Part shown: positions 20,213-62,584 of the stretch, piece after piece
How the letters are laid out: each line of letters starts with the position of its first letter
Numbering within the stretch: position 1 is the stretch's first letter
Assembly: GCA_934234055.1 (NCBI GenBank)
Contig: CAKQGY010000001.1
Location: forward strand, 14,035-78,034
From: an uncultured Alphaproteobacteria bacterium
GTDB lineage: Bacteria > Pseudomonadota > Alphaproteobacteria > CAAHEQ01 > UBA3637
Length of the DNA: 64,000 nt
Reading direction: 5' to 3'
Position numbers and translations under genes: made by a program
Notes under the pieces: model-generated
What the model was told of the DNA's origin: nothing
The model's database searches: none
Seen by the model: the letters and a program-made list of their open reading frames with translations, nothing else

Positions 20213-20261
20213 GTCATTGCGAGGCCGTCAGGCCGTGGCAATCCACCCGGCACATAATTCC
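20213..20261 (+). repeat. REP/MITE-like repeat family 1, copy A (gtcattgcgag-hairpin-gtggcaatcc-acccggcacataattcc), preceded by a Py-rich tract and followed by C7
   Basis: Shares conserved flanks with copies at 24395, 27757, 36996, 43445, 44718, 46774 and 59741. The central hairpin ggccgtcaggcc is variable. Confidence 0.8.
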
Positions 20262-27756: not shown

Positions 27757-27807
27757 GTCATTGCGAGGCGACTTGTCGCCGTGGCAATCCATAAGGCACA
27801 TAATTCC
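27757..27807 (+). repeat. Repeat family 1 copy C (gtcattgcgag-gcgacttgtcgcc-gtggcaatcc-ataaggcacataattcc)
   Basis: Sits between convergent genes. The central hairpin gcgac-ttg-tcgcc is variable. Confidence 0.8.
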
Positions 27808-34914: not shown

Positions 34915-37231
34915 TTTTTTTGAACTGACCGATCCCGTCGATTTTTCCGAGGCCGCCCCCACTTCTTCTCCCCAGGACTACCCGTTTATGCAGGCTCTGA
35001 ACCCCGAGCAGCGCCAAGCCGTCATGCAGACCGAGGGTCCCGTTTTGGTTTTATCCGGTGCCGGCACGGGCAAGACTCGCGTGCTCACCACCCGGATTGC
35101 GTATTTGCTGGCGACGGGCAGGGCGACTCCGTGGCAGATTTTAGCCGTCACTTTCACCAACAAGGCCAGCCGCGAGATGAAAGATCGCCTGGAACAGATG
35201 ATCGGCCCGTCGGCGCGTTCGGTATGGCTGGGCACATTTCACGCTATCGGGGTCAAGATTTTGTCGCGTTATGCGGCTCAGGCCGGCCTTGCCCCCAACT
35301 TTATCGTTCTCAACACCGACGACCAAGAACGCCTGTTAAAGCAGCTGATGGTTGCCGGTGGCGTGGACATCAAGCGTTTTACGCCCGCCACGATGCTGGA
35401 CATTATTCAGCGTTGGAAGGACCGCGGCCTGTCCCCCACGGCGATTACGCCGGCTCAGGACAGTGATTTTTGCGACGGCCGTGCGCGTGGCTTTTATCAG
35501 CTGTATCAGAATCGCCTGCGCGAGTTAAACGCCGTTGATTTCGGTGATTTGCTGCTGCTGCCGCTGGAATTGTTCAAGGCCCACCCCGACATTTTAGCGG
35601 TTTATCAGGCCAAGTTCCGCTATCTTCTGGTGGACGAGTATCAGGACACCAATGTTGCCCAGTATTTACTGCTGCGTTTATTGGCGCAAAAGTCGCGTAA
35701 TATCTGCTGTGTCGGCGATGATGATCAGTCTATTTATTCCTGGCGCGGAGCCGAGGTTGAAAACATTCTCAATTTTCAAAGCGTGTATCCCGACGCCGTT
35801 GTGATTCGACTGGAACGCAACTATCGCTCTACGGCGCATATTTTGGGCGCGGCCTCGGCACTGATTGCGAACAATGCCGGACGTCTTGGCAAGACTCTCA
35901 AAGTTGCCGACAACCGCGACGGTGCGGGCGATCGCGTGCACATCACGGGCTACTGGAACGGCACCCAAGAGGCCGCCGGCATTATATCGCATGTAGAGCA
36001 TGCTCAATCTCTCGGCACGCCGCTGTCCCATATGGCGATATTGGTGCGCACATCGGCTCAAACCCGTCCCTTTGAAGACGAGTTGATTCGGGCCGGTATT
36101 CCTTATAAGATTATCGGCGGGTTCAAGTTTTACGAGCGCGAAGAAATCCGCGATGCCGTGGCATATTTGCGCCTGGTCTTAAATCCCGGCGATGATCTGG
36201 CGTTTCAGCGCATCGTCAACAAGCCCCGCCGCGGTATCGGCGACAGCGCGCTGACGGCCATTTCCGAGGCTGCCCGCGACCATCGGATCAGCCTCTTTGA
36301 CGCGATTGCGTGGGCCACATTGCGCCCGTCTGTCCGGCGCACGCTGGACGGCTTTACAACACTGATCACCACCGCCCGCGGCAAACAGGATTTGCTGGAC
36401 CCGGCCGCCCTTGCCAAACAAGTGCTTGAAGACTCGGGCTACATCAATATGTGGCGTATGGACAAATCGCCCGAGGCCGAGGGCCGTTTAGAGAACTTGG
36501 ACGAATTGTATAATGTGTTGGGTGATTTCGAAACGATCAATGATTTTATTGAATATGCCGCCTTGCTCACCGACGCGGACGATAATGCGACCGACGATCA
36601 ACTGGTTGTAATGACACTTCACGCGTCCAAAGGGCTTGAATTTGACTATGTTTTCCTGGCCGGCTGGGAGGAGGGGCTTTTCCCGCACCAACGTGCGTTG
36701 GACGAGACCGGCCAGCAGGGTCTGGAAGAAGAACGTCGTTTGGCGTATGTAGGCCTGACCCGTGCGCGTCAAAAAGCGTTTATTTCGTTTGCCGCGAACC
36801 GCAAGATCTACGGCCAATGGGAGAATACGGTGGCCAGTCGTTTTATTGACGAACTTCCCCCGGGGGATATTCAGAACGATACCCAAGTCCGTATGGGCTC
36901 CACTTCCGGTGATTTTTCCGCTCCCTATCCCCGCGCCGCCTGTGCGTCCTCTTCTGATTCCTTTTCCCGCTCTTTTAATTCTTCTCCTCTCCCCCGTCAT
37001 TGCGAGGGACAGATCAATCTGTCCTGTGGCAATCCATTAAACCAAGAGTCCTTATACTCTTACCAAGGACGAGCCACCCCCCGCCGGAAATCTGCCCGTA
37101 TCGGTAAAAGGGTCTATCACGACACATTCGGTTTCGGAACAGTGATTCGCGAGGAGGGCGACCGCCTGGAAGTCCGTTTTGACGACTATGGCCTCAAAAA
37201 AGTCCTCTCTCGCTTCCTCTCCCCCGCTTAA
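34907..37231 (+). CDS. uvrD: UvrD/PcrA-family ATP-dependent DNA helicase, with a repeat element inserted in-frame in the C-terminal linker
   Basis: Carries the helicase motifs (GAGTGKTRVL Walker A, DEYQDTN, VGDDDQSIYSWRGA, ...) and a C-terminal Tudor-like domain (GKRVYHDTFGFGTVIREEGDRLEVRF). Residues encoded by 36945-37060 are repeat family 1 copy D. Confidence 0.85.
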   Translation: MPDFFELTDPVDFSEAAPTSSPQDYPFMQALNPEQRQAVMQTEGPVLVLSGAGTGKTRVLTTRIAYLLATGRATPWQILAVTFTNKASREMKDRLEQMIGPSARSVWLGTFHAIGVKILSRYAAQAGLAPNFIVLNTDDQERLLKQLMVAGGVDIKRFTPATMLDIIQRWKDRGLSPTAITPAQDSDFCDGRARGFYQLYQNRLRELNAVDFGDLLLLPLELFKAHPDILAVYQAKFRYLLVDEYQDTNVAQYLLLRLLAQKSRNICCVGDDDQSIYSWRGAEVENILNFQSVYPDAVVIRLERNYRSTAHILGAASALIANNAGRLGKTLKVADNRDGAGDRVHITGYWNGTQEAAGIISHVEHAQSLGTPLSHMAILVRTSAQTRPFEDELIRAGIPYKIIGGFKFYEREEIRDAVAYLRLVLNPGDDLAFQRIVNKPRRGIGDSALTAISEAARDHRISLFDAIAWATLRPSVRRTLDGFTTLITTARGKQDLLDPAALAKQVLEDSGYINMWRMDKSPEAEGRLENLDELYNVLGDFETINDFIEYAALLTDADDNATDDQLVVMTLHASKGLEFDYVFLAGWEEGLFPHQRALDETGQQGLEEERRLAYVGLTRARQKAFISFAANRKIYGQWENTVASRFIDELPPGDIQNDTQVRMGSTSGDFSAPYPRAACASSSDSFSRSFNSSPLPRHCEGQINLSCGNPLNQESLYSYQGRATPRRKSARIGKRVYHDTFGFGTVIREEGDRLEVRFDDYGLKKVLSRFLSPA
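36996..37035 (+). repeat. Repeat family 1 copy D, inside the uvrD ORF (gtcattgcgag-ggacagatcaatctgtcc-tgtggcaatcc)
   Basis: Preceded by the usual Py-tract (36945-36993, encoding a Ser-rich linker). The whole insert is read in-frame with no stop. Confidence 0.8.
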
Positions 37232-43444: not shown

Positions 43445-43481
43445 GGATTGCCGCGCGTCCGGAATGGACGCTCGCAATGAC
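43445..43481 (+). repeat. Repeat family 1 copy E (ggattgccgc-gcgtccggaatggacgc-tcgcaatgac), left direct repeat of the islet
   Basis: It matches copy F (46774-46810) at 33 of 37 positions, including the otherwise variable hairpin, and lies in the same orientation. Confidence 0.8.
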
Positions 43482-44898: not shown

Positions 44899-46539
44899 TT
44901 ACTTATGACATAAGAAAGGAGAGCCAATCGGACTTAAATCAATTTCTATTTCAGAGGCCACATTGTGCGCTTTCCCATCTTTCATTACAATTTGATATTT
45001 CTTTCCGGCGGTAAAAGAATAATCCTGTGGCCAGAACATATCTTTCCCAGATAGTGTGGCCGACCCTCTATTACCATAGGTATGCCAGGCCAAAGTGACA
45101 TTATTAAAAGACTCGTCCGACAAATAGATAAGATATCCCTCTTGAGTACTGGTGCAACTCTTTTTACTGGAATGAGTGCTGCCCATTGGAGACGTTGGTG
45201 TTGTTATACTGGTATAAGCTACAAAAGTTCGATTACATTTATTGCCCCATACAGAAGTATATTTAAGACCATCTTTTAAGCCGAAAAATTGACAAGGTGT
45301 TTTACAAACATTCTTAGTTGTATCACATTTAAACTTGTTATCTGCTCGTCCGGCACAATCCGTATCATTCACGCACTCCACGCAGGCTGTATTATCAGCG
45401 TTTGGTACGCCCGTCGGACAGTTGCATTCGCAGGTATCGGCATTTTGTGTCATACCGGCAGCCGCGCACGCCGGGCATTTGCAGGTATTGTTTGCGACAT
45501 CACAGACGGTCTTGGGCTCGGTGCAGGTCAAGGGCTCGTAAGTTGTATAGGCCGGACATGCTTCCGTCGCCGCGTGCTCCGTGGTCGTATAGCAGGTGTT
45601 CTGCGGCACCGACCCCGACTCCGGACAAGCACAAGTATTATCTGCCATATTGCATATTTTGCCGCCGGTGCAGTCTGTATCGGCCAGGCATTCCACACAC
45701 GCGTTGTCATCGGCGTTTGGCACCCCCGTCGGGCAAGTGCACGCACAGGTGTTCGGATTCTGCACCTTGTCCGGGTTCGTGCACCCCGTGGTGCAGACGC
45801 AGCTCAAATCGTCGTCGCACCGGTGCAGTCCGTCATTGGTGCAGTCCGCAATTGTGTTCTGGTGAGGCCCATACCTGTCAATTGAAGCCTGATCAAAATA
45901 GCACTGCCGCGTATTCGCCGTTGTGCAGCAAGTTAAATTGTTGGCGGCTGTTTTCTTACATTCTTTATTAGATAGGTATTGGCCTTCTTCAAACGCCAAA
46001 GTGTCCGTGTCCGTTACGCGGCAGCAGGTTTTGCCCCAACACGGATCATACGCCTCCGCGTCAGTGCGCTCGTTCAAGTCCCCCGCGAACACAAAGGTCA
46101 TCTTACTGTTCCCCTCGGGGCAGGGAATAGCCCGTTCATTCACAAAAATCCCCGCCGGCCAAGTCCAGTTCCGATCCAAGATATCCTGACACACCGCCTG
46201 AGGCACCTCTTTCACATCAATAGAGAACAAGTTTTTCTCGTTATTCAAGCCACCATCAAACCATTCGGTCTCATATTCCAGGATTGTGCTTGGGAACTCG
46301 GACAAGTTGATTCCCTCCATACCTTGCAGGTATTGCCCGCTACCGACGGTGGCGCGTTGTTTAACGCTTTCTATAATCTCGTTGGCGCGATACCGTGTCA
46401 TCGCAAAGTTATACCCCGCAACACCCCCGATGCTCAGCACTCCCATAATCGCCAACACCCCCAGCATCTCTACCATACTGCGACCAGATTCGGAATTGTC
46501 CTTTGCACCCCACGCCCCGGAGCGCCGGCTGAAGTTCAT
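44899..46539 (-). CDS. Large pilin-like Cys-rich adhesin candidate: prepilin-type N-terminus, tandem Cys-rich repeats and a C-terminal globular domain (546 aa from ATG 46539)
   Basis: The N-terminus ...SESG|RSMVEMLGVLAIMGVLSIGG is near-identical to the pilin-like ORF at 37243. Two Cys-rich modules are present (CxCPTGVPNADxxACVECxxDTDCxG). The tracked ORF reaches the TTG at 46653 through a C13 run encoding PPPP. An SD-preceded ATG at 46634 is currently out of frame. Confidence 0.65.
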   Translation of the reverse strand: MNFSRRSGAWGAKDNSESGRSMVEMLGVLAIMGVLSIGGVAGYNFAMTRYRANEIIESVKQRATVGSGQYLQGMEGINLSEFPSTILEYETEWFDGGLNNEKNLFSIDVKEVPQAVCQDILDRNWTWPAGIFVNERAIPCPEGNSKMTFVFAGDLNERTDAEAYDPCWGKTCCRVTDTDTLAFEEGQYLSNKECKKTAANNLTCCTTANTRQCYFDQASIDRYGPHQNTIADCTNDGLHRCDDDLSCVCTTGCTNPDKVQNPNTCACTCPTGVPNADDNACVECLADTDCTGGKICNMADNTCACPESGSVPQNTCYTTTEHAATEACPAYTTYEPLTCTEPKTVCDVANNTCKCPACAAAGMTQNADTCECNCPTGVPNADNTACVECVNDTDCAGRADNKFKCDTTKNVCKTPCQFFGLKDGLKYTSVWGNKCNRTFVAYTSITTPTSPMGSTHSSKKSCTSTQEGYLIYLSDESFNNVTLAWHTYGNRGSATLSGKDMFWPQDYSFTAGKKYQIVMKDGKAHNVASEIEIDLSPIGSPFLCHK

Positions 46540-46560
46540 ACGAAAATACTTTAATAACGC

Positions 46561-46566
46561 ATTATA
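46561..46566 (-). promoter_or_regulatory. Candidate -10 hexamer TATAAT upstream of ATG 46539
   Basis: A perfect TATAAT lies 22 nt upstream of the MNFSRR start. The -35 is poor (ATAACT-like), and the poly-C tract lies just upstream. Confidence 0.35.
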
Positions 46567-46599
46567 ACCACTTGAAAAACAAGAGTTATTCACACATAT

Positions 46600-46612
46600 G
46601 GGGGGGGGGGGG
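46600..46612 (+). repeat. Homopolymeric G13 (C13 on the coding strand) in the 5' region of the pilin-like adhesin gene
   Basis: Thirteen consecutive G. It separates an SD-preceded ATG (46634, frame +1) from the main ORF. Confidence 0.9.
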
Positions 46613-46706
46613 TATTGCCGGATAAAATATACATTTTGTGTCTCCTTTCTCAATCTGGAAAAATGTAATATATCTTTTTATAGCAGGAATTTTTGCCCCT
46701 GTCAAT

Positions 46707-46737
46707 AAAAAAAAGTCCGCATGACGCGGACAATTTT
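46707..46737 (-). terminator. Rho-independent terminator for the obg-rsfS transcript (hairpin gtccgc-atga-cgcggac with T8 on the minus strand)
   Basis: A8 precedes and aatttt follows on the plus strand, which gives a strong T8 on the minus strand. Confidence 0.65.
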
Positions 46738-46759
46738 GGCGATCCCGACAGGATTCGAA
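46737..46759 (-). other. tRNA 3'-end fragment (T-loop TTCGAAT, T-stem 3' half, acceptor 3' half, discriminator and CCA), with no 5' half
   Basis: The minus strand reads ttcgaat-cctgt-cgggatc-g-cca, which parses exactly as the 3' 23 nt of a tRNA. No complementary acceptor 5' strand lies within 100 nt, so it is not a gene. Confidence 0.55.
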
Positions 46760-46773
46760 CTTGCGTGTTTTGC

Positions 46774-46845
46774 GGATTGCCACGCGTCCAAAATGGACAC
46801 TCGCAATGACAAGCAGAATTATGTGCCTAATGGATTCTTCGGGAA
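46774..46845 (+). repeat. Repeat family 1 copy F (ggattgccac-gcgtccaaaatggacac-tcgcaatgac plus module 2 gaattatgtgcctaatggattcttcggg), right direct repeat of the islet
   Basis: Near-identical to copy E. It is followed by a Pu-rich tract that includes G6. Confidence 0.8.
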
Positions 46846-46880: not shown

Positions 46881-47315
46881 TTAGATTTTTTTGCGGGGAG
46901 GGGGGAGAGAAAGGCAGCGGCTGGGGCGCCAGAGAGATTCCAGGTCATAGCGGGTGCGAGCCTCGGCCGTCAGTAAATGCACGATAATGTTCCCCAGATC
47001 CACAATCACCCAGCTGCCGTCTCCGTCGCCGGCATTCGTCAGCGGAATAATATCGTGCGTGCGTAGGGTTTGCTCCAAATGGTAGCCCAGCGCCATTGTG
47101 TGGCGTGGGGAAGTGCCCGTTGCGATCACCACATAATCGGCCAGCGCGGACAGGCGGCGAATATCACGGGCTTGAATCTGCTCGGCCTTGCCGGTGTCCA
47201 GCTTTTTAATAATTAGGGTCAGGGTTTTGAGCGCGGCACGCTCGGCCGGGGTCGGTGTTGTCGGACGTTGCGGTCGGCGGGGGGAAGTGCGGGGTTTTCG
47301 GGGAGTAATGGGCAT
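46881..47315 (-). CDS. rsfS: Ribosome silencing factor RsfS (Iojap-like) with a Pro/Arg-rich N-terminal extension
   Basis: C-terminal core DYVVIATGTSPRHTMALGYHL...WVIVDLGNIIVHLL. The first roughly 35 aa (PITPRKPRTSPRRPQRPTTPTP) form a low-complexity extension. Confidence 0.75.
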   Translation of the reverse strand: MPITPRKPRTSPRRPQRPTTPTPAERAALKTLTLIIKKLDTGKAEQIQARDIRRLSALADYVVIATGTSPRHTMALGYHLEQTLRTHDIIPLTNAGDGDGSWVIVDLGNIIVHLLTAEARTRYDLESLWRPSRCLSLPPPRKKI

Positions 47316-48738
<1,423 letters not shown>

Positions 48739-48739
<1 letters not shown>

Positions 48740-50190
48740 TATTGCACGGCTTTCCCGTTGAGAGTCAGTTTGCCATCTTGAAACTGAATTTTGAGCGTGT
48801 CAACCGTCGCACCGTCCGGATCCGTCGTGCGCGCGCCCGCCGTGAGGTAAGGCCGAATGATGTCCAGCATACCGCCCTGAGGCGCACAGGCCATTTCAAT
48901 CATCATTTGAGAGGCTTGCTTATCCTGCTCGTCTGTGGGGTTTGTGAAGTCCTTTTTCGCCTGAGCACAACGGGCTTCATCAACCGTCGGAACCGGCGAA
49001 ATGGTGTCCAAATTGCGAATGGTCAGCGTCGCATCAACCACCGGTTGCGGATTACCGCGCACGTCAAACTTGGCCCGCGCCGTGCCCGTCAGCATCAGAC
49101 CTGCGCCGGCGTTTTGAACCTGCAACTCGTGCAAGGTAATCGTGCCGGATTGCAGCATATGCTGAATGGCGGCGTGTTGCCGGGCATCGTCGGACTTGTC
49201 ATCGGTGAGGGTGAGCAGATCCTGTTTATTGAGCCCCGTAATGTCCAAACGCAGCATAATCTCGGTCGGCATCAGGTTGGCCGGCACCGGCATCGCGGTT
49301 TGCAATTGGGTGAGTTTGGTCTCAAAATGATAGGTGTCATCTTGGAAGCGAGTTTTGCCCGACAGCGCGCCCGTCGCCATGGGCAGCGAGCTGTTCGTGC
49401 CGGCGGTGGGGAAAATCTGAATCGTCGGAATTTCAAAGGTGCCCTCAAATTTATCGGCCAGCAATTGACGCGTTAAATCCACGCCGACAACCGGTGCGTT
49501 CGTCAGCAGCGAATACGCCGTCAGCACCGGGATTTTAAGGCTGCCGTTTTGGGTGGTCAGGGTCATATCACGCATATCCAGCGCCGCTGACATATCCATT
49601 TTGTCCGCCGCCAAAGGGCGCGCCAAAATGTCCGAAGTCAATTGCGTCAGTGCCAAGGTGCCGTCGGCGGTGCTCATTTTCGCATCGGTGGCACGCGTGG
49701 CGCGGTTGGCAATCAATTGATAGGCCGGAACAACGATTAAATCGTCCTGAACCGTGGCGGCCGTCAATTTGATGTCGTCGTCAACCAGAGCCAGTAAGTC
49801 TTGAAGATAATCCAGAGAGGCCAGAGACAGCTTATACTGTGCCTGATCCCCGAAAGCACCGGCACGGGTCAGTTTGACCGAACGGGCAGAGAGCGACTTG
49901 ACTTTGCCGTCGTCCTCGTCCGATACGGCGCCCAACGTAATATCAAAATCATCACCGTTTGGGGTGACGGTAATTTCGCCGGGCCAGGCAATCACGGATT
50001 CAAGGGTTTGTTTGACCTGCTCGATTGTGGGGATAACCACTGCGGAAGCGGTCGTTGCCGGCGCGGGAGCGGGGGCCGTGGGGGCTGTGGCAACAGCAGG
50101 GGCCGGGGTCGGAGCCTCGGCCGCCAGCAGAGGAAATGACGCACAGGTTAAACCCGCCGCAATACAGCCCAGTAAAAGTGTTTTTTTCAT
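48739..50190 (-). CDS. Secreted hypothetical protein with an Ala/Pro-rich linker (possibly DUF2125-like)
   Basis: ATG 50190 (MKKTLLLGCIAAGLTCASFPLLAA signal) with an AAAGGAGA SD. It has a PAPAVATAPTAPAPAPATTA linker. The family assignment is uncertain. Confidence 0.45.
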
Positions 50191-50297
50191 CGTAAGTGTC
50201 TCCTTTCTGTTAAAAATAATGCCTATTATAAAGCGGGTTTGGGGGTAAATCAAGGATTTTCTTGCAATTTTGTAAAAAATATGCTATAACGAAAGCC

Positions 50298-59740: not shown

Positions 59741-59812
59741 GTGGATTGCCGCGGGACAGACCTGTCTGTCCCGCGCAATGACAGAAGCATTCGTGTTTAA
59801 TGGATTCTTCGG
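59741..59812 (+). repeat. Repeat family 1 copy H (ggattgccgc-gggacagacctgtctgtcccgc-gcaatgac + module 2 agcattcgtgtttaatggattcttcgg), followed by G9 at 59852-59860
   Basis: Same modular structure as copies F and G. The G9 tract lies 45 nt upstream of the adhE -35. Confidence 0.8.
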
Positions 59813-59906
59813 TCGCTCCCAATTCAACCTAAGCCTGGAACGGCGTGTGCAGGGGGGGGGCGAAAAAATGGGAGTGAAAAAAGTCAAAAAAGGATGAAGA
59901 AAATGC

Positions 59907-59935
59907 TTGACTTTTGAGGGGTGTTTTGCTATATT
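59907..59935 (+). promoter_or_regulatory. Sigma-70 promoter TTGACT-N17-TATATT for adhE
   Basis: Its hexamers and spacing are identical to those of the ffh promoter. Confidence 0.5.
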
Positions 59936-59951
59936 GTGCCACAAATCACAA
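59934..59951 (+). promoter_or_regulatory. Candidate Rex operator TTGTGCCACAAATCACAA overlapping the adhE -10/+1
   Basis: Matches the 18-bp Rex consensus TTGTGAA-N4-TTCACAA in both half-sites (TTGTG...CACAA). The rex gene lies immediately downstream of adhE. Confidence 0.55.
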
Positions 59952-59986
59952 TTCAAAACTCAAAAAATAACAGAAAGGAACGAAAA

Positions 59987-62584
59987 ATGAGTGAAGTTAA
60001 ATCTTTGGAAGATTTAGAAAAACTGATTGACCGGGTCCATGTCGCACAGAATCGCTTTGCGACATTCTCGGAAGAAAAAGTTGACGCGATTTTTAAAGCG
60101 GCGGCAACGGCTGCCGATAAAATGCGGATTGACTTGGCCGAAATGGCCGTCGCCGAAACCGGTATGGGCGTGATTGAAGATAAAATTATCAAAAATCACT
60201 TCGCTTCCGAATACATCTATAACAAGCACAAAAACAAAAAAACCTGCGGAATTATCAGTCGTGATAAAATTAACGGCACAAAAATCGTGGCCTCGCCTTT
60301 GGGCGTGATCGCGGGCGTTGTGCCGACAACGAATCCGACCTCTACGGCGATTTTTAAATCATTAATCTGTCTGAAAACCCGCAACGGCATTATCTTTTCA
60401 CCGCACCCGCGCGCCAAAAAATCCACGATCGCTGCGGCGAAAGTGGTGCTGGATGCGGCCGTGAAAGCCGGCGCGCCGAAAGATATTATTGCTTGGGTTG
60501 ATGAACCGTCTTTGGAACTGACACAAGCGTTGATGACTCACCCGAAAATCCAAGCGATTTTGGCAACCGGTGGCCCGGGTATGGTTAAGGCGGCCTATTC
60601 ATCAGGCAAGCCCGCGTTGGGCGTGGGGTCGGGTAATACGCCGGCCGTGATTGATGAAACAGCGGATATTATTCGCGCGGTGTCCTCAATCCTGATGTCC
60701 AAGACCTTTGATAACGGTATGATTTGTGCCTCGGAACAATCGGTAATTGTGGTCAAAGATGTTTATGAAGATGTGAAAAAAGAGTTCGTCTATCGCGGGG
60801 CGTATCTGATGAACAAAGCCGAAATGGATAAGTTGGGCAAAATTATCCTGACCGACAAAGGAACCGTGAATGCGGCGATCGTCGGACAACCGGCACACAA
60901 AATCGCGGAATTGGCGGGCTTTCAGGTGCCGGAAAATGCCAAAATCCTGTTGGCGGAACAAACCTCGTATGATGTGAAAAACCCGTTTGCGCACGAAAAA
61001 TTGTCGCCGATCTTGGCGATGTATAAAGCCGATAATTTTGAACAAGCGGCCGAGATGGCACACGCGTTGATCGCACTGGGCGGATTGGGGCATACCTCGG
61101 TCCTGTATACCGATGAACGCAAACAAGAACGGATTGATGCCTATGCAACGATGATGCCGACCGGCCGTATCCTGATCAACAGCCCGGCCTCGCAAGGCGG
61201 AATCGGCGATCTGTATAACTTCCGCTTGGAACCGTCGTTGACCCTGGGTTGCGGCTCGTGGGGCGGAAACTCGGTCAGCGAAAATGTCGGCGTGAAACAT
61301 TTGCTAAACTATAAAACTGTTGCAGAAAGGAGAGAAAATATGTTGTGGTTTAAAGTGCCGCCCAAGATCTATTTCAAACGGGGAGCGACCGAATTGGCTT
61401 TGCGCGAATTTGAAGGTAAAAAACGCGCGTTCATTATTACAGACCGATTCTTGTTTGATTCGGGTGCGGTGCGGACAATCACGGATACCTTGGAAGCCAT
61501 TGATGTGGATTACCAGATCTTCTTTGATGTCAAGCCTGATCCGACTTTGTCCACGGTGGAACAAGCCTTGGCCATGGTGCGGCCGTATGAACCGGATTTG
61601 ATTATTGCCCTGGGTGGCGGATCGCCGATGGATGTGGGCAAGATTATCTGGCTGATGTATGAACACCCGGAAACCAACTTTGAAGACATTTCTATGCGGT
61701 TTATGGATATTCGTAAGCGGATTTGCTCTATTCCGGAATTGGGTCAAAAAGCCAAATTGGTCTGTATCCCGACAACCTCAGGGACGGGCTCGGAAGTGAC
61801 GCCGTTCTCTATTATCACGGACGATGCAACCCATGTTAAGTATGCGTTGGCGGATTACGCTTTGACACCGTCTATGGCGATTATTGATGCGAACTTTGTG
61901 GACGGTATGCCCAAAGGGCTGACCTCGGCCGGTGGGATTGACGCGATGGTGCATGCGCTGGAAGCCTATGTCTCGGTGATGGCAACGAACTATACGAATT
62001 CGTTGGCGTTGGAGGCAATTAAACAAATCTTCCGCTATTTGCCGGCGTCGTATGCCGAAGGATCCGGCAATCCCAAAGCCCGTGAAAAAATGCATAACGC
62101 GGCGACCATCGCCGGTATGGCGTTTGCCAATGCATTCTTGGGGCTGTGCCACTCTATGGCGCACAAGTTGGGCGCAATGTATAACATTCCGCATGGGATT
62201 GCGAATGCCTTGCTGATCTGTCAGGTGATTCGCTATAACGCGACGGATTGCCCGAAGAAACAGGCGATCTTCCCGCAATATCGCGCTCCGGAAGCCAAAA
62301 AACGCTATGGGCAGATTGCGCATGTGCTGTATCTGGCGGATGAAAATGTGTCCGATGACGAAAAAGTGAACCGCTTGATCAAAGCGGTGGCGGACCTGAA
62401 AGAAAAAATCGGTATCCCCAAATCCATCCGGGAATGGGGTGTTGATGAAAAAACCTTTATGGACAACTTGGATAAACTGTCGCGCTTGGCCTTTGACGAC
62501 CAATGCACGGGAGCCAATCCGGTGTATCCGTTGATCAGCGATATCAAACAACTCTATCTGGACGCGTTTGAAGGCAAATACTAG
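59987..62584 (+). CDS. adhE: Bifunctional aldehyde/alcohol dehydrogenase AdhE
   Basis: N-terminal ALDH domain and C-terminal Fe-ADH domain (GGGSPMD, plus iron-binding His residues). 865 aa from ATG 59987, with a GAAAGGAA SD. Confidence 0.9.
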   Translation: MSEVKSLEDLEKLIDRVHVAQNRFATFSEEKVDAIFKAAATAADKMRIDLAEMAVAETGMGVIEDKIIKNHFASEYIYNKHKNKKTCGIISRDKINGTKIVASPLGVIAGVVPTTNPTSTAIFKSLICLKTRNGIIFSPHPRAKKSTIAAAKVVLDAAVKAGAPKDIIAWVDEPSLELTQALMTHPKIQAILATGGPGMVKAAYSSGKPALGVGSGNTPAVIDETADIIRAVSSILMSKTFDNGMICASEQSVIVVKDVYEDVKKEFVYRGAYLMNKAEMDKLGKIILTDKGTVNAAIVGQPAHKIAELAGFQVPENAKILLAEQTSYDVKNPFAHEKLSPILAMYKADNFEQAAEMAHALIALGGLGHTSVLYTDERKQERIDAYATMMPTGRILINSPASQGGIGDLYNFRLEPSLTLGCGSWGGNSVSENVGVKHLLNYKTVAERRENMLWFKVPPKIYFKRGATELALREFEGKKRAFIITDRFLFDSGAVRTITDTLEAIDVDYQIFFDVKPDPTLSTVEQALAMVRPYEPDLIIALGGGSPMDVGKIIWLMYEHPETNFEDISMRFMDIRKRICSIPELGQKAKLVCIPTTSGTGSEVTPFSIITDDATHVKYALADYALTPSMAIIDANFVDGMPKGLTSAGGIDAMVHALEAYVSVMATNYTNSLALEAIKQIFRYLPASYAEGSGNPKAREKMHNAATIAGMAFANAFLGLCHSMAHKLGAMYNIPHGIANALLICQVIRYNATDCPKKQAIFPQYRAPEAKKRYGQIAHVLYLADENVSDDEKVNRLIKAVADLKEKIGIPKSIREWGVDEKTFMDNLDKLSRLAFDDQCTGANPVYPLISDIKQLYLDAFEGKY

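Follow-up and report, generated by a model that had tools for sequence, protein, structure and literature searches.

How does a run of 13 identical bases between a start codon and an intact pilin-like open reading frame (ORF) affect the gene, and can it act as a switch? The run is a G13 homopolymer on the forward strand (46600-46612), and thus C13 on the coding (minus) strand, within a 64,000-nucleotide stretch of contig CAKQGY010000001.1 from an uncultured gut alphaproteobacterium, which as a whole is called the window here. It is the only G/C run longer than 9 nt in the 64-kb window, in which G runs of 5, 6 and 7 nt occur 28 times, four times and once, respectively, followed by a single G9 and this G13. 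According to our own estimate under an independent-base model with ~26% G, only ~0.003 runs of at least 13 nt are expected, and therefore the tract cannot be attributed to chance. Its length also lies above the ~8 nt from which G/C homopolymers are taken to be mutable. As we will focus on below, it is likely that the poly-C tract is a translational phase-variation switch that works by slipped-strand mispairing, with the window copy in the OFF state.

The first-pass annotation of this DNA had already pointed to the tract and to its effect on the frame starting at ATG 46634, and both the position and the frame arithmetic were reproduced here. With C13, this ATG, which is preceded by a Shine-Dalgarno (SD) site, reads MYILSGNTPPPPYV and terminates after 14 codons at TGA 46592-46590. 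With C11 or C14 it opens 577 or 578 codons, respectively, which include ICVNNSCFSSGYNALLKYFRMNFSRRSGAWGAKDNSESGRSMVEML and end with the stop at 44899. The remaining tract lengths between 9 and 16 (C9, C10, C12, C13, C15 and C16) lead to termination within 13-16 codons, i.e., one tract-length class in three gives a full-length product and the remainder terminate early. In the ON frame the motif following the tract stays open (I/V-C-V-N-N), and the OFF frames hit either TGA (46592-46590) or TAA (46588-46586) in it. Three start candidates are in frame with the pilin-like ORF at C13, namely TTG 46653, ATG 46539 and also GTG 46593, which had been missed when the first two were named as the only ones, and an SD site is present at none of the three. 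The host organism uses SD sites, and SD-like sites precede 12 of the 17 housekeeping genes that were checked in the window. ATG 46539 follows a perfect TATAAT (46566-46561, 21 nt before it) within an AT-rich stretch and is succeeded by DNSESGRSMVEMLGVLAIMGVLSIGG and an ORF that is open to 44899 on the minus strand. This internal ATG is probably not the main start: the upstream ATG has a strong SD in every cassette described below, and the equivalent internal ATG has a purine-rich SD in none.

Comparative support comes from related sequences, all of which are contigs assembled from metagenomes. They contain a common module consisting of an SD site, an ATG, 20-31 nt, poly-C, RTATGTGTGAATAA, an AT-rich leader, a further ATG and the pilin signal, which is found at at least four chromosomal sites before different members of one gene family, although the proteins encoded there share only 38-44% identity with the window protein. 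Each of the ten complete cassettes has an SD-preceded ATG 20-31 nt upstream of its tract (with ACAGGAGG, AAAGGACA and CAAGGAGA as SD equivalents), and the peptide encoded from ATG to tract shows no conservation among them. The tracts comprise 11-14 C, which puts five cassettes in frame (ON) and five out of frame (OFF; Table 1). Alleles of the same locus (L082 vs. L158, and L154 to L157) have near-identical flanks and different tract lengths, and of the three copies in the assembly GCA_977942485.1, one is ON and two are OFF. The contig L085 begins inside the tract, which hints at ambiguity in its assembly. G/C runs of at least 8 nt in ~71 kb of DNA from close relatives are confined to the cassette tracts. 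Products with the N-terminus M....PPPP(V/I)CVNN... are represented by P0006, P0020, P0121, P0129, P0130 and P0132, the last four of which add to the ON-state examples. Module anatomy, module conservation and tract-length differences with ON and OFF states between loci and alleles are therefore a matter of direct observation, as is the frame arithmetic, and the recurrence of the module, its 11-14 C, the two states and the allelic length differences support the initial proposal that the homopolymer sets the frame between the SD-ATG and the pilin-like ORF as a slipped-strand switch.

Further alleles show how the module may change. L155 and L156 differ from L154, L157 and L084 between ATG and tract by a 1-nt indel in an A run (ATGAAAATTTT vs. 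ATGAAAAATTTT), which swaps the N-terminal peptide (MKILSSC vs. MKNFKQL) and alters which tract lengths are in frame, and the tract length compensates for the indel; the A run is a second, smaller mutable site of the module. At the aspS locus the module directly follows the aspS stop codon and has no promoter of its own in the gap, and therefore control at this locus must act on translation. One allele type (L084/P0011/P0123) carries CCTCCACTTCCCC, i.e., four substitutions in the tract, with the 13-nt length kept and in frame with the upstream ATG. Orthologs with non-homopolymeric codons at this place had been regarded in the first-pass annotation as speaking against switching. Such an ortholog does exist, but its frame is open and it looks like a locked-on derivative, so that it is no argument against a switch. 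Moreover, the gene caller chose the internal ATG for P0131 (L155, 608-2557) despite an in-frame upstream SD-ATG, and therefore ON and OFF cannot be read from the N-termini of database proteins alone.

A scan of GTDB genomes with the family profile (79 loci, 86 pilin-motif sites) found a G/C run of at least 7 nt within 400 nt upstream only in the window, L001 and L047, and the layout of the L047 tract (C8A8) is unlike the cassette; the cassette is confined to close relatives. All 68 matches of a JGI metagenome scan for TATGTGTGAATAAYYNTTNTT were chance matches with neither a C run nor a pilin motif; the lineage is absent from that collection. Protein searches with a leader profile and with the ON-frame N-terminus returned only P0121 and P0122, plus the irrelevant P0134.

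Taken as a mechanism, transcription would start from a sigma-70-like promoter (TTGACA-17-TATAAA) and translation would begin at ATG 46634 behind its SD site. The length of the poly-C tract alone would then decide whether ribosomes proceed into the pilin-like protein, with 11, 14 and 17 C in frame; at other lengths translation would end 2-4 codons past the tract at the TGA or TAA within RTATGTGTGAATAA. Slipped-strand mispairing during replication would add or remove single C:G pairs, and therefore a population is proposed to hold both ON and OFF cells, the C13 of the window being OFF and one insertion away from ON. The ON product would be a prepilin with a leader of ~50 residues, which a prepilin peptidase would cut between ESG and RSMVE, and the leader would need only to stay open, with no particular sequence. 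As several paralogs per genome have their own module, the pilin-like surface proteins could be switched independently and in combination. We infer that slippage is frequent and reversible, that the protein is lost in the OFF state, that the leader is cleaved and that the protein has a surface or adhesive role.

The leader between tract and cleavage site is consistent with this mechanism. It contains no stop in the pilin frame in any of the 11 copies and one to three stops in each other frame, and the sole indel among the copies is an in-frame 3-nt deletion in L084. Its variable columns are distributed over the codon positions as 8/10/8, and because substitutions are so even, it seems that only openness of the leader is selected.

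Table 1. Coordinates of the features in the window, and the cassettes with their poly-C tracts and reading states.
Feature	Position or contig	Strand	Remark
Pilin-like protein body	44899..46482	-	predicted mature N-terminus RSMVEMLGVLAIMGVLS; stop 44899-44901
Leader ("bridge")	46483..46599	-	tract to predicted prepilin cleavage site between ...ESG and RSMVE
Internal in-frame ATG (MNFSRRSG...)	46537..46539	-	without SD; often chosen by gene callers
Post-tract motif ATATGTGTGAATAA	46586..46599	-	conserved, directly 3' of tract
Tract C13	46600..46612	-	proposed slipped-strand switch; gene out of frame (OFF) at 13
ATG start of switch-controlled frame	46632..46634	-	22 nt before tract (19 nt between ATG and C13)
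Shine-Dalgarno AAAGGAGA	46641..46648	-	6 nt before ATG 46634
Promoter-like TTGACA (46705-46700)-17 nt-TATAAA (46682-46677)	46677..46705	-	read from sequence
Intrinsic-terminator-like hairpin GTCCGCGTCATGCGGAC + T run	46707..46731 (hairpin 46731-46715)	-	
tRNA-Arg(TCT) 3'-end fragment	46737..46764	-	28 nt identical; marks 5' edge of copied cassette
REP-like palindromic element GGATTGCC...GCAATGAC	46774..46810		upstream cassette junction
REP-like copies	20213-20244, 27757-27790, 36996-37035, 43445-43481, 46774-46810, 59743-59782		
Cassette, rplS locus	window		C13, OFF
Cassette after intact tRNA-Arg(TCT)	L083		C13, OFF
Cassette, aspS-ssb	L082		C14, ON
Cassette, aspS-ssb	L158		C12, OFF
Cassette, unknown locus	L001		C12, ON
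Cassette, Fer4/Sua5	L154		C13, ON
Cassette, Fer4/Sua5	L155		C11T, ON
Cassette, Fer4/Sua5	L156		C13T, OFF
Cassette, Fer4/Sua5	L157		C11T, OFF
Cassette, Fer4/Sua5	L084		CCTCCACTTCCCC (13 nt), ON
Cassette, Fer4/Sua5	L085		contig begins inside tract; state unknown

Several points weigh against a translational switch. The leader shows no constraint at the amino-acid level, and from composition alone an open leader frame has a probability of 9-16% per sequence. With 52 residues in the ON state, and ~115 at the Fer4 locus, the leader is far above the usual size of a prepilin leader, and the Fer4 locus has shorter starts nearer to the cleavage site (MFNRFF...). Both copies of this exact cassette variant (window and L083) are C13, and five ON among ten cassettes is statistically no different from the one in three expected for random lengths. 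No pilus machinery is present among the window ORFs examined. Finally, the length differences between assemblies could partly be due to homopolymer sequencing or assembly errors.

The last point can be extended to the whole observation: the true tract might be in frame (e.g., C14) and the gene always made, the OFF state and the differences between samples being homopolymer errors. Long G/C homopolymers are error-prone on all platforms, every sequence compared here comes from a metagenome assembly, and one contig (L085) even breaks inside the tract. However, errors would not create a module with SD-ATG, pure tract and stops in both wrong frames and conserve it across genes that are only 38-44% identical, and the lengths span 11-14, including differences of two bases between near-identical alleles. 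The four tract substitutions in L084 also fit the expectation that a pure tract, if not needed, is costly to maintain, and at such a length the tract would be mutable regardless of the true consensus. We therefore regard an artifact as unlikely.

Somewhat less probable still is a transcriptional role, in which the tract would tune a promoter as a spacer or UP-element and the protein would start at the internal ATG 46539 behind the TATAAT at 46566-46561. Promoter-type parallels are the fim genes of Bordetella and the opc and porA promoters of Neisseria. Besides the perfect TATAAT 21 nt before that ATG, this idea can draw on distant relatives in which poly-C adjoins the upstream side of -35 boxes: L010 has C12 at 629-640, followed directly by TTGACA, and further such tracts outside coding leaders (C8A8, C10A8 and C9T7) are located in L047 (~2360), L048 (4864-4873) and L064 (3301-3309). 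These may possibly be transcriptional switches based on simple sequence repeats in their own right. In the window, however, no -35/-10 pair spans the tract: the TATAAA -10 box is located 64 nt before it and the TATAAT 33 nt after it. At a spacing of 17 nt from the TATAAT there is the hexamer ATAACT, a usable -35 box is lacking, the promoter scan reports no promoter at this place, and in other copies the TATAAT is replaced by GTCAAC, TATAAG, TATAAA or TACAAG. Furthermore, the internal ATG is without SD in every copy, and the SD-ATG is kept 20-31 nt upstream of each tract. The earlier suggestion of weak or leaderless expression in the OFF state via TATAAT and internal ATG thus finds no support, given that the TATAAT lacks conservation and that no SD precedes the internal ATG in any copy.

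It is very improbable that the frameshift is fixed and that the gene is a decaying pseudogene or a silent paralog without switching. Its present state is out of frame, the identical L083 cassette is likewise C13 and out of frame, and dead copies are common in large paralogous families. However, the 566 codons 3' of the tract form an intact ORF, the closest relatives of which are full-length proteins with 87-92% identity, promoter, SD and ATG are intact as well, and half of the homologous cassettes are in frame. Just as improbable is non-heritable recoding with steady low expression, in which RNA polymerase would slip or ribosomes would shift frame on the C13/proline run, and which could also act beside DNA slippage: the tract lies in a transcribed and translated region and long A/T homopolymers are known to cause transcriptional slippage, but the 5' region has no stimulatory RNA structure, as its fold is no more stable than that of shuffled sequence (minimum free energy -41.5 kcal/mol, z = +1.38), and tract-length differences between alleles are directly observed at the DNA level.

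What would then be switched? The layout of the protein body comprises a head domain like that of type IVb pilins, Cys-rich repeats and a variable C-terminal domain. In metagenome protein sets there are 568 homologs, which share ESGRS-MVEMLGVLAI-GVLS and a domain of ~150 residues, followed by variable Cys-rich parts. The N-terminus has the characteristics of a class III signal, with cleavage predicted between ...ESG and RSMVEMLGVLAIMGVLSIGGVAGY, Gly at -1, Glu at +5 and a hydrophobic N-terminal alpha-1 helix of ~20 residues, and conservation among 101 homologs is at least 90% for G19, E24 and the hydrophobic stretch. The N-terminal methylation motif PF07963 was matched with 12.1 bits (E = 0.15), which is below the cut-off of 21.2 and compares to 17.5 bits for P0016. 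In an AlphaFold (AF2) model from 101 sequences, a helix (21-71) is packed on a sheet (strands 89-152) with pLDDT values of 88-96, and the top 10 Foldseek matches in the PDB are all type IVb pilins (TcpA, the type IVb pilin of enterotoxigenic Escherichia coli, and PilS of S. Typhi), although these matches are weak (E ~1e-2, identity 10-20%). In our alignment, the mature N-terminus after the Gly cleavage lines up with that of TcpA at E5, V9, L10, I12, M13, G14, V15, S17 and G19. Together the signal, the model and the matches support a pilin-like identity of the predicted protein.

An adhesin role we infer from the architecture, since Pfam and NCBIfam searches with the protein and ten relatives matched no lectin or adhesin family; the weak matches were N_methyl, a sub-threshold Cys-rich repeat and a weak TNF-receptor-like match in P0012, and EGF-like repeats were found in P0028. 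The neighboring genes are of the housekeeping type, with sufE, obg and rsfS upstream and rplS, trmD, rimM, rpsP and ffh beyond. The 79 related loci are from metagenome-assembled genomes, with several copies in each, of uncultured Alphaproteobacteria from the gut of humans, rabbits and ruminants. C-terminal domains are swapped among alleles of 87-92% identity (P0001-P0005 and P0133 vs. window 44899-45500): the C-terminus of the window protein is common only to P0001, and P0002-P0005 bear two or three other C-terminal modules. Moreover, the family member located at the aspS-ssb site varies from genome to genome. Both observations suggest that the pilin-like family recombines in a cassette-like manner.

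Where does the switch module of the window copy come from? From 46765 to ~46495 the window is identical to L083 in 265 of 270 positions, including the last 28 nt of tRNA-Arg, the terminator, promoter, SD, ATG and tract, and similarity then drops. In L083 an intact tRNA-Arg gene (2728-2804) precedes the same cassette, and hairpin GTCCGCGTCATGCGGAC is the terminator of that gene. ARAGORN found no complete tRNA in the window, and the orphan 3' end shows that copying of the 5' module between loci has taken place. The gene body, in contrast, is closest to P0001 (92% protein identity; L002, with the same rplS-side synteny) and also close to P0133 of the aspS locus. The 5' end of P0001 is ordinary and without a tract, and DNA similarity between the window and L002 starts only at 46503. 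As the 5' part matches L083 and the body matches P0001, the window gene is a mosaic, whose switch module was copied from a paralogous tRNA-linked locus. Synteny between the window (46881-50253) and L002 (4335-5849) is broken, with sufE-obg-rsfS upstream here and RmuC-cupin in L002, and the downstream genes rplS...ffh are shared; family genes seem to sit at rearrangement points.

It is conceivable, with a probability that we would place somewhat short of even, that a module of ~150-280 bp (promoter, SD-ATG, poly-C, double-stop motif and an unconstrained translated bridge) is a portable phase-switch cassette that spreads by recombination among paralogs and that came into the window with 28 nt of tRNA-Arg, displacing an ordinary 5' end such as that of the 92%-identical ortholog. 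If this is true, the outcome would be a combinatorial repertoire like that of Opa, made up of type IVb-like prepilins whose leaders (50-115 residues) are exceptionally long.

Regarding the other elements of the 5' region, the promoter-like site has a conserved counterpart in the Fer4-locus cassettes (TTGACT-17-TAAAAA), and it is absent from the output of the promoter scan because the scan demands a T at position 6 of the -10 hexamer. A second promoter match, TTGAGA-16-TATATT, overlaps SD and ATG and is not conserved in other cassettes; it was taken as chance. An Rfam search gave only two sub-threshold chance matches. The repetitive extragenic palindrome (REP)-like element, GGATTGCC...hairpin...GCAATGAC, occurs in both orientations in at least six copies in 64 kb, and is read through in frame in family leaders, namely in P0001 ("VDCHK..."), P0003 ("CHCERPFWTRGNP"), P0010 and at the Fer4 locus ("GGLPRRAAACNDKK"). 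The G9 at 59852-59860 (forward strand) is a second unusual homopolymer of the window. It is intergenic, ~50 nt upstream of a promoter-like site TTGACT-17-TATATT that precedes an ORF for an adhE-type aldehyde/alcohol dehydrogenase (59921-62584), and it may or may not be variable in length.

Repeat-based contingency loci are textbook knowledge for a few host-adapted pathogens, i.e., Neisseria, Haemophilus, Campylobacter and Helicobacter. For gut commensals such loci are scarcely on record, and to our knowledge none has been described from Alphaproteobacteria; our literature searches aimed at this lineage found no report of repeat-based contingency loci. If the switch is real, an uncultured gut alphaproteobacterial lineage would have stochastic, gene-by-gene variation in a large family of pilin-like, Cys-rich surface proteins, which would bear on persistence against host immunity or phages. 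Annotation pipelines will mis-annotate these genes, because gene callers pick different ATGs (as for P0131). Among known pilins, the predicted long alpha-1 helix with a beta-sheet head is similar to the type IVb pilins TcpA/TcpB and CofA/CofB, and the long leader together with the large C-terminal extension recalls tip pilins of the CofB/TcpB type. However, the Cys-rich C-terminal part has no characterized homolog, and no pilus genes are nearby.

Among the closest parallels to the proposed switch are the gonococcal genes pilC1 and pilC2, whose (G)9-15 tracts vary between strains (PMC5320596) and turn the genes ON and OFF by frameshift (Jonsson et al., 1991, as cited in PMC5320596). In both cases a G/C homopolymer of ~9-15 nt lies just after the start in the leader-coding part of a pilus-related gene, would set the frame to ON or OFF, and is present in at least two independently switching paralogs. 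However, PilC, which carries a Sec signal peptide, is no pilin, whereas the tract described here is located in the leader of a pilin-like protein that has a predicted class III (prepilin) signal, and the proposed switch belongs to an uncultured gut alphaproteobacterium. The opa genes of Neisseria are 11-12 paralogs with CTTCT repeats where the signal peptide is encoded, and like the family described here they are a scattered, variable surface-protein family with one leader-coding repeat per copy, combinatorial ON/OFF states and mosaic, recombining paralogs (PMC5320596). They differ in that the opa repeat is pentameric and Opa proteins are outer-membrane beta-barrels instead of pilin-like proteins, and in that here the whole 5' module, including promoter and tRNA fragment, has visibly moved between loci. 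The pgtA gene of N. gonorrhoeae occurs with phase-variable (G)n or locked GGGAGCGGG alleles (PMC5320596, Table 2), to which L154 (C13) and L084 (CCTCCACTTCCCC) are parallel, although pgtA encodes a glycosyltransferase. In the gut commensal Bifidobacterium breve, slippage of an intragenic G-tract turns pilus production on, with equivalents throughout the genus (PMC9187656). That system differs from the present one, since it is Gram-positive, concerns sortase pili, has the tract inside a gene of the pilus cluster instead of a leader module, and was verified by maximum-depth sequencing (PMC9187656). The switch mechanism itself is not new, and its class is known from pilC and opa of Neisseria and from the pilus G-tract of Bifidobacterium; what the present locus adds is a switch in the form of a module common to, and moved between, paralogs.

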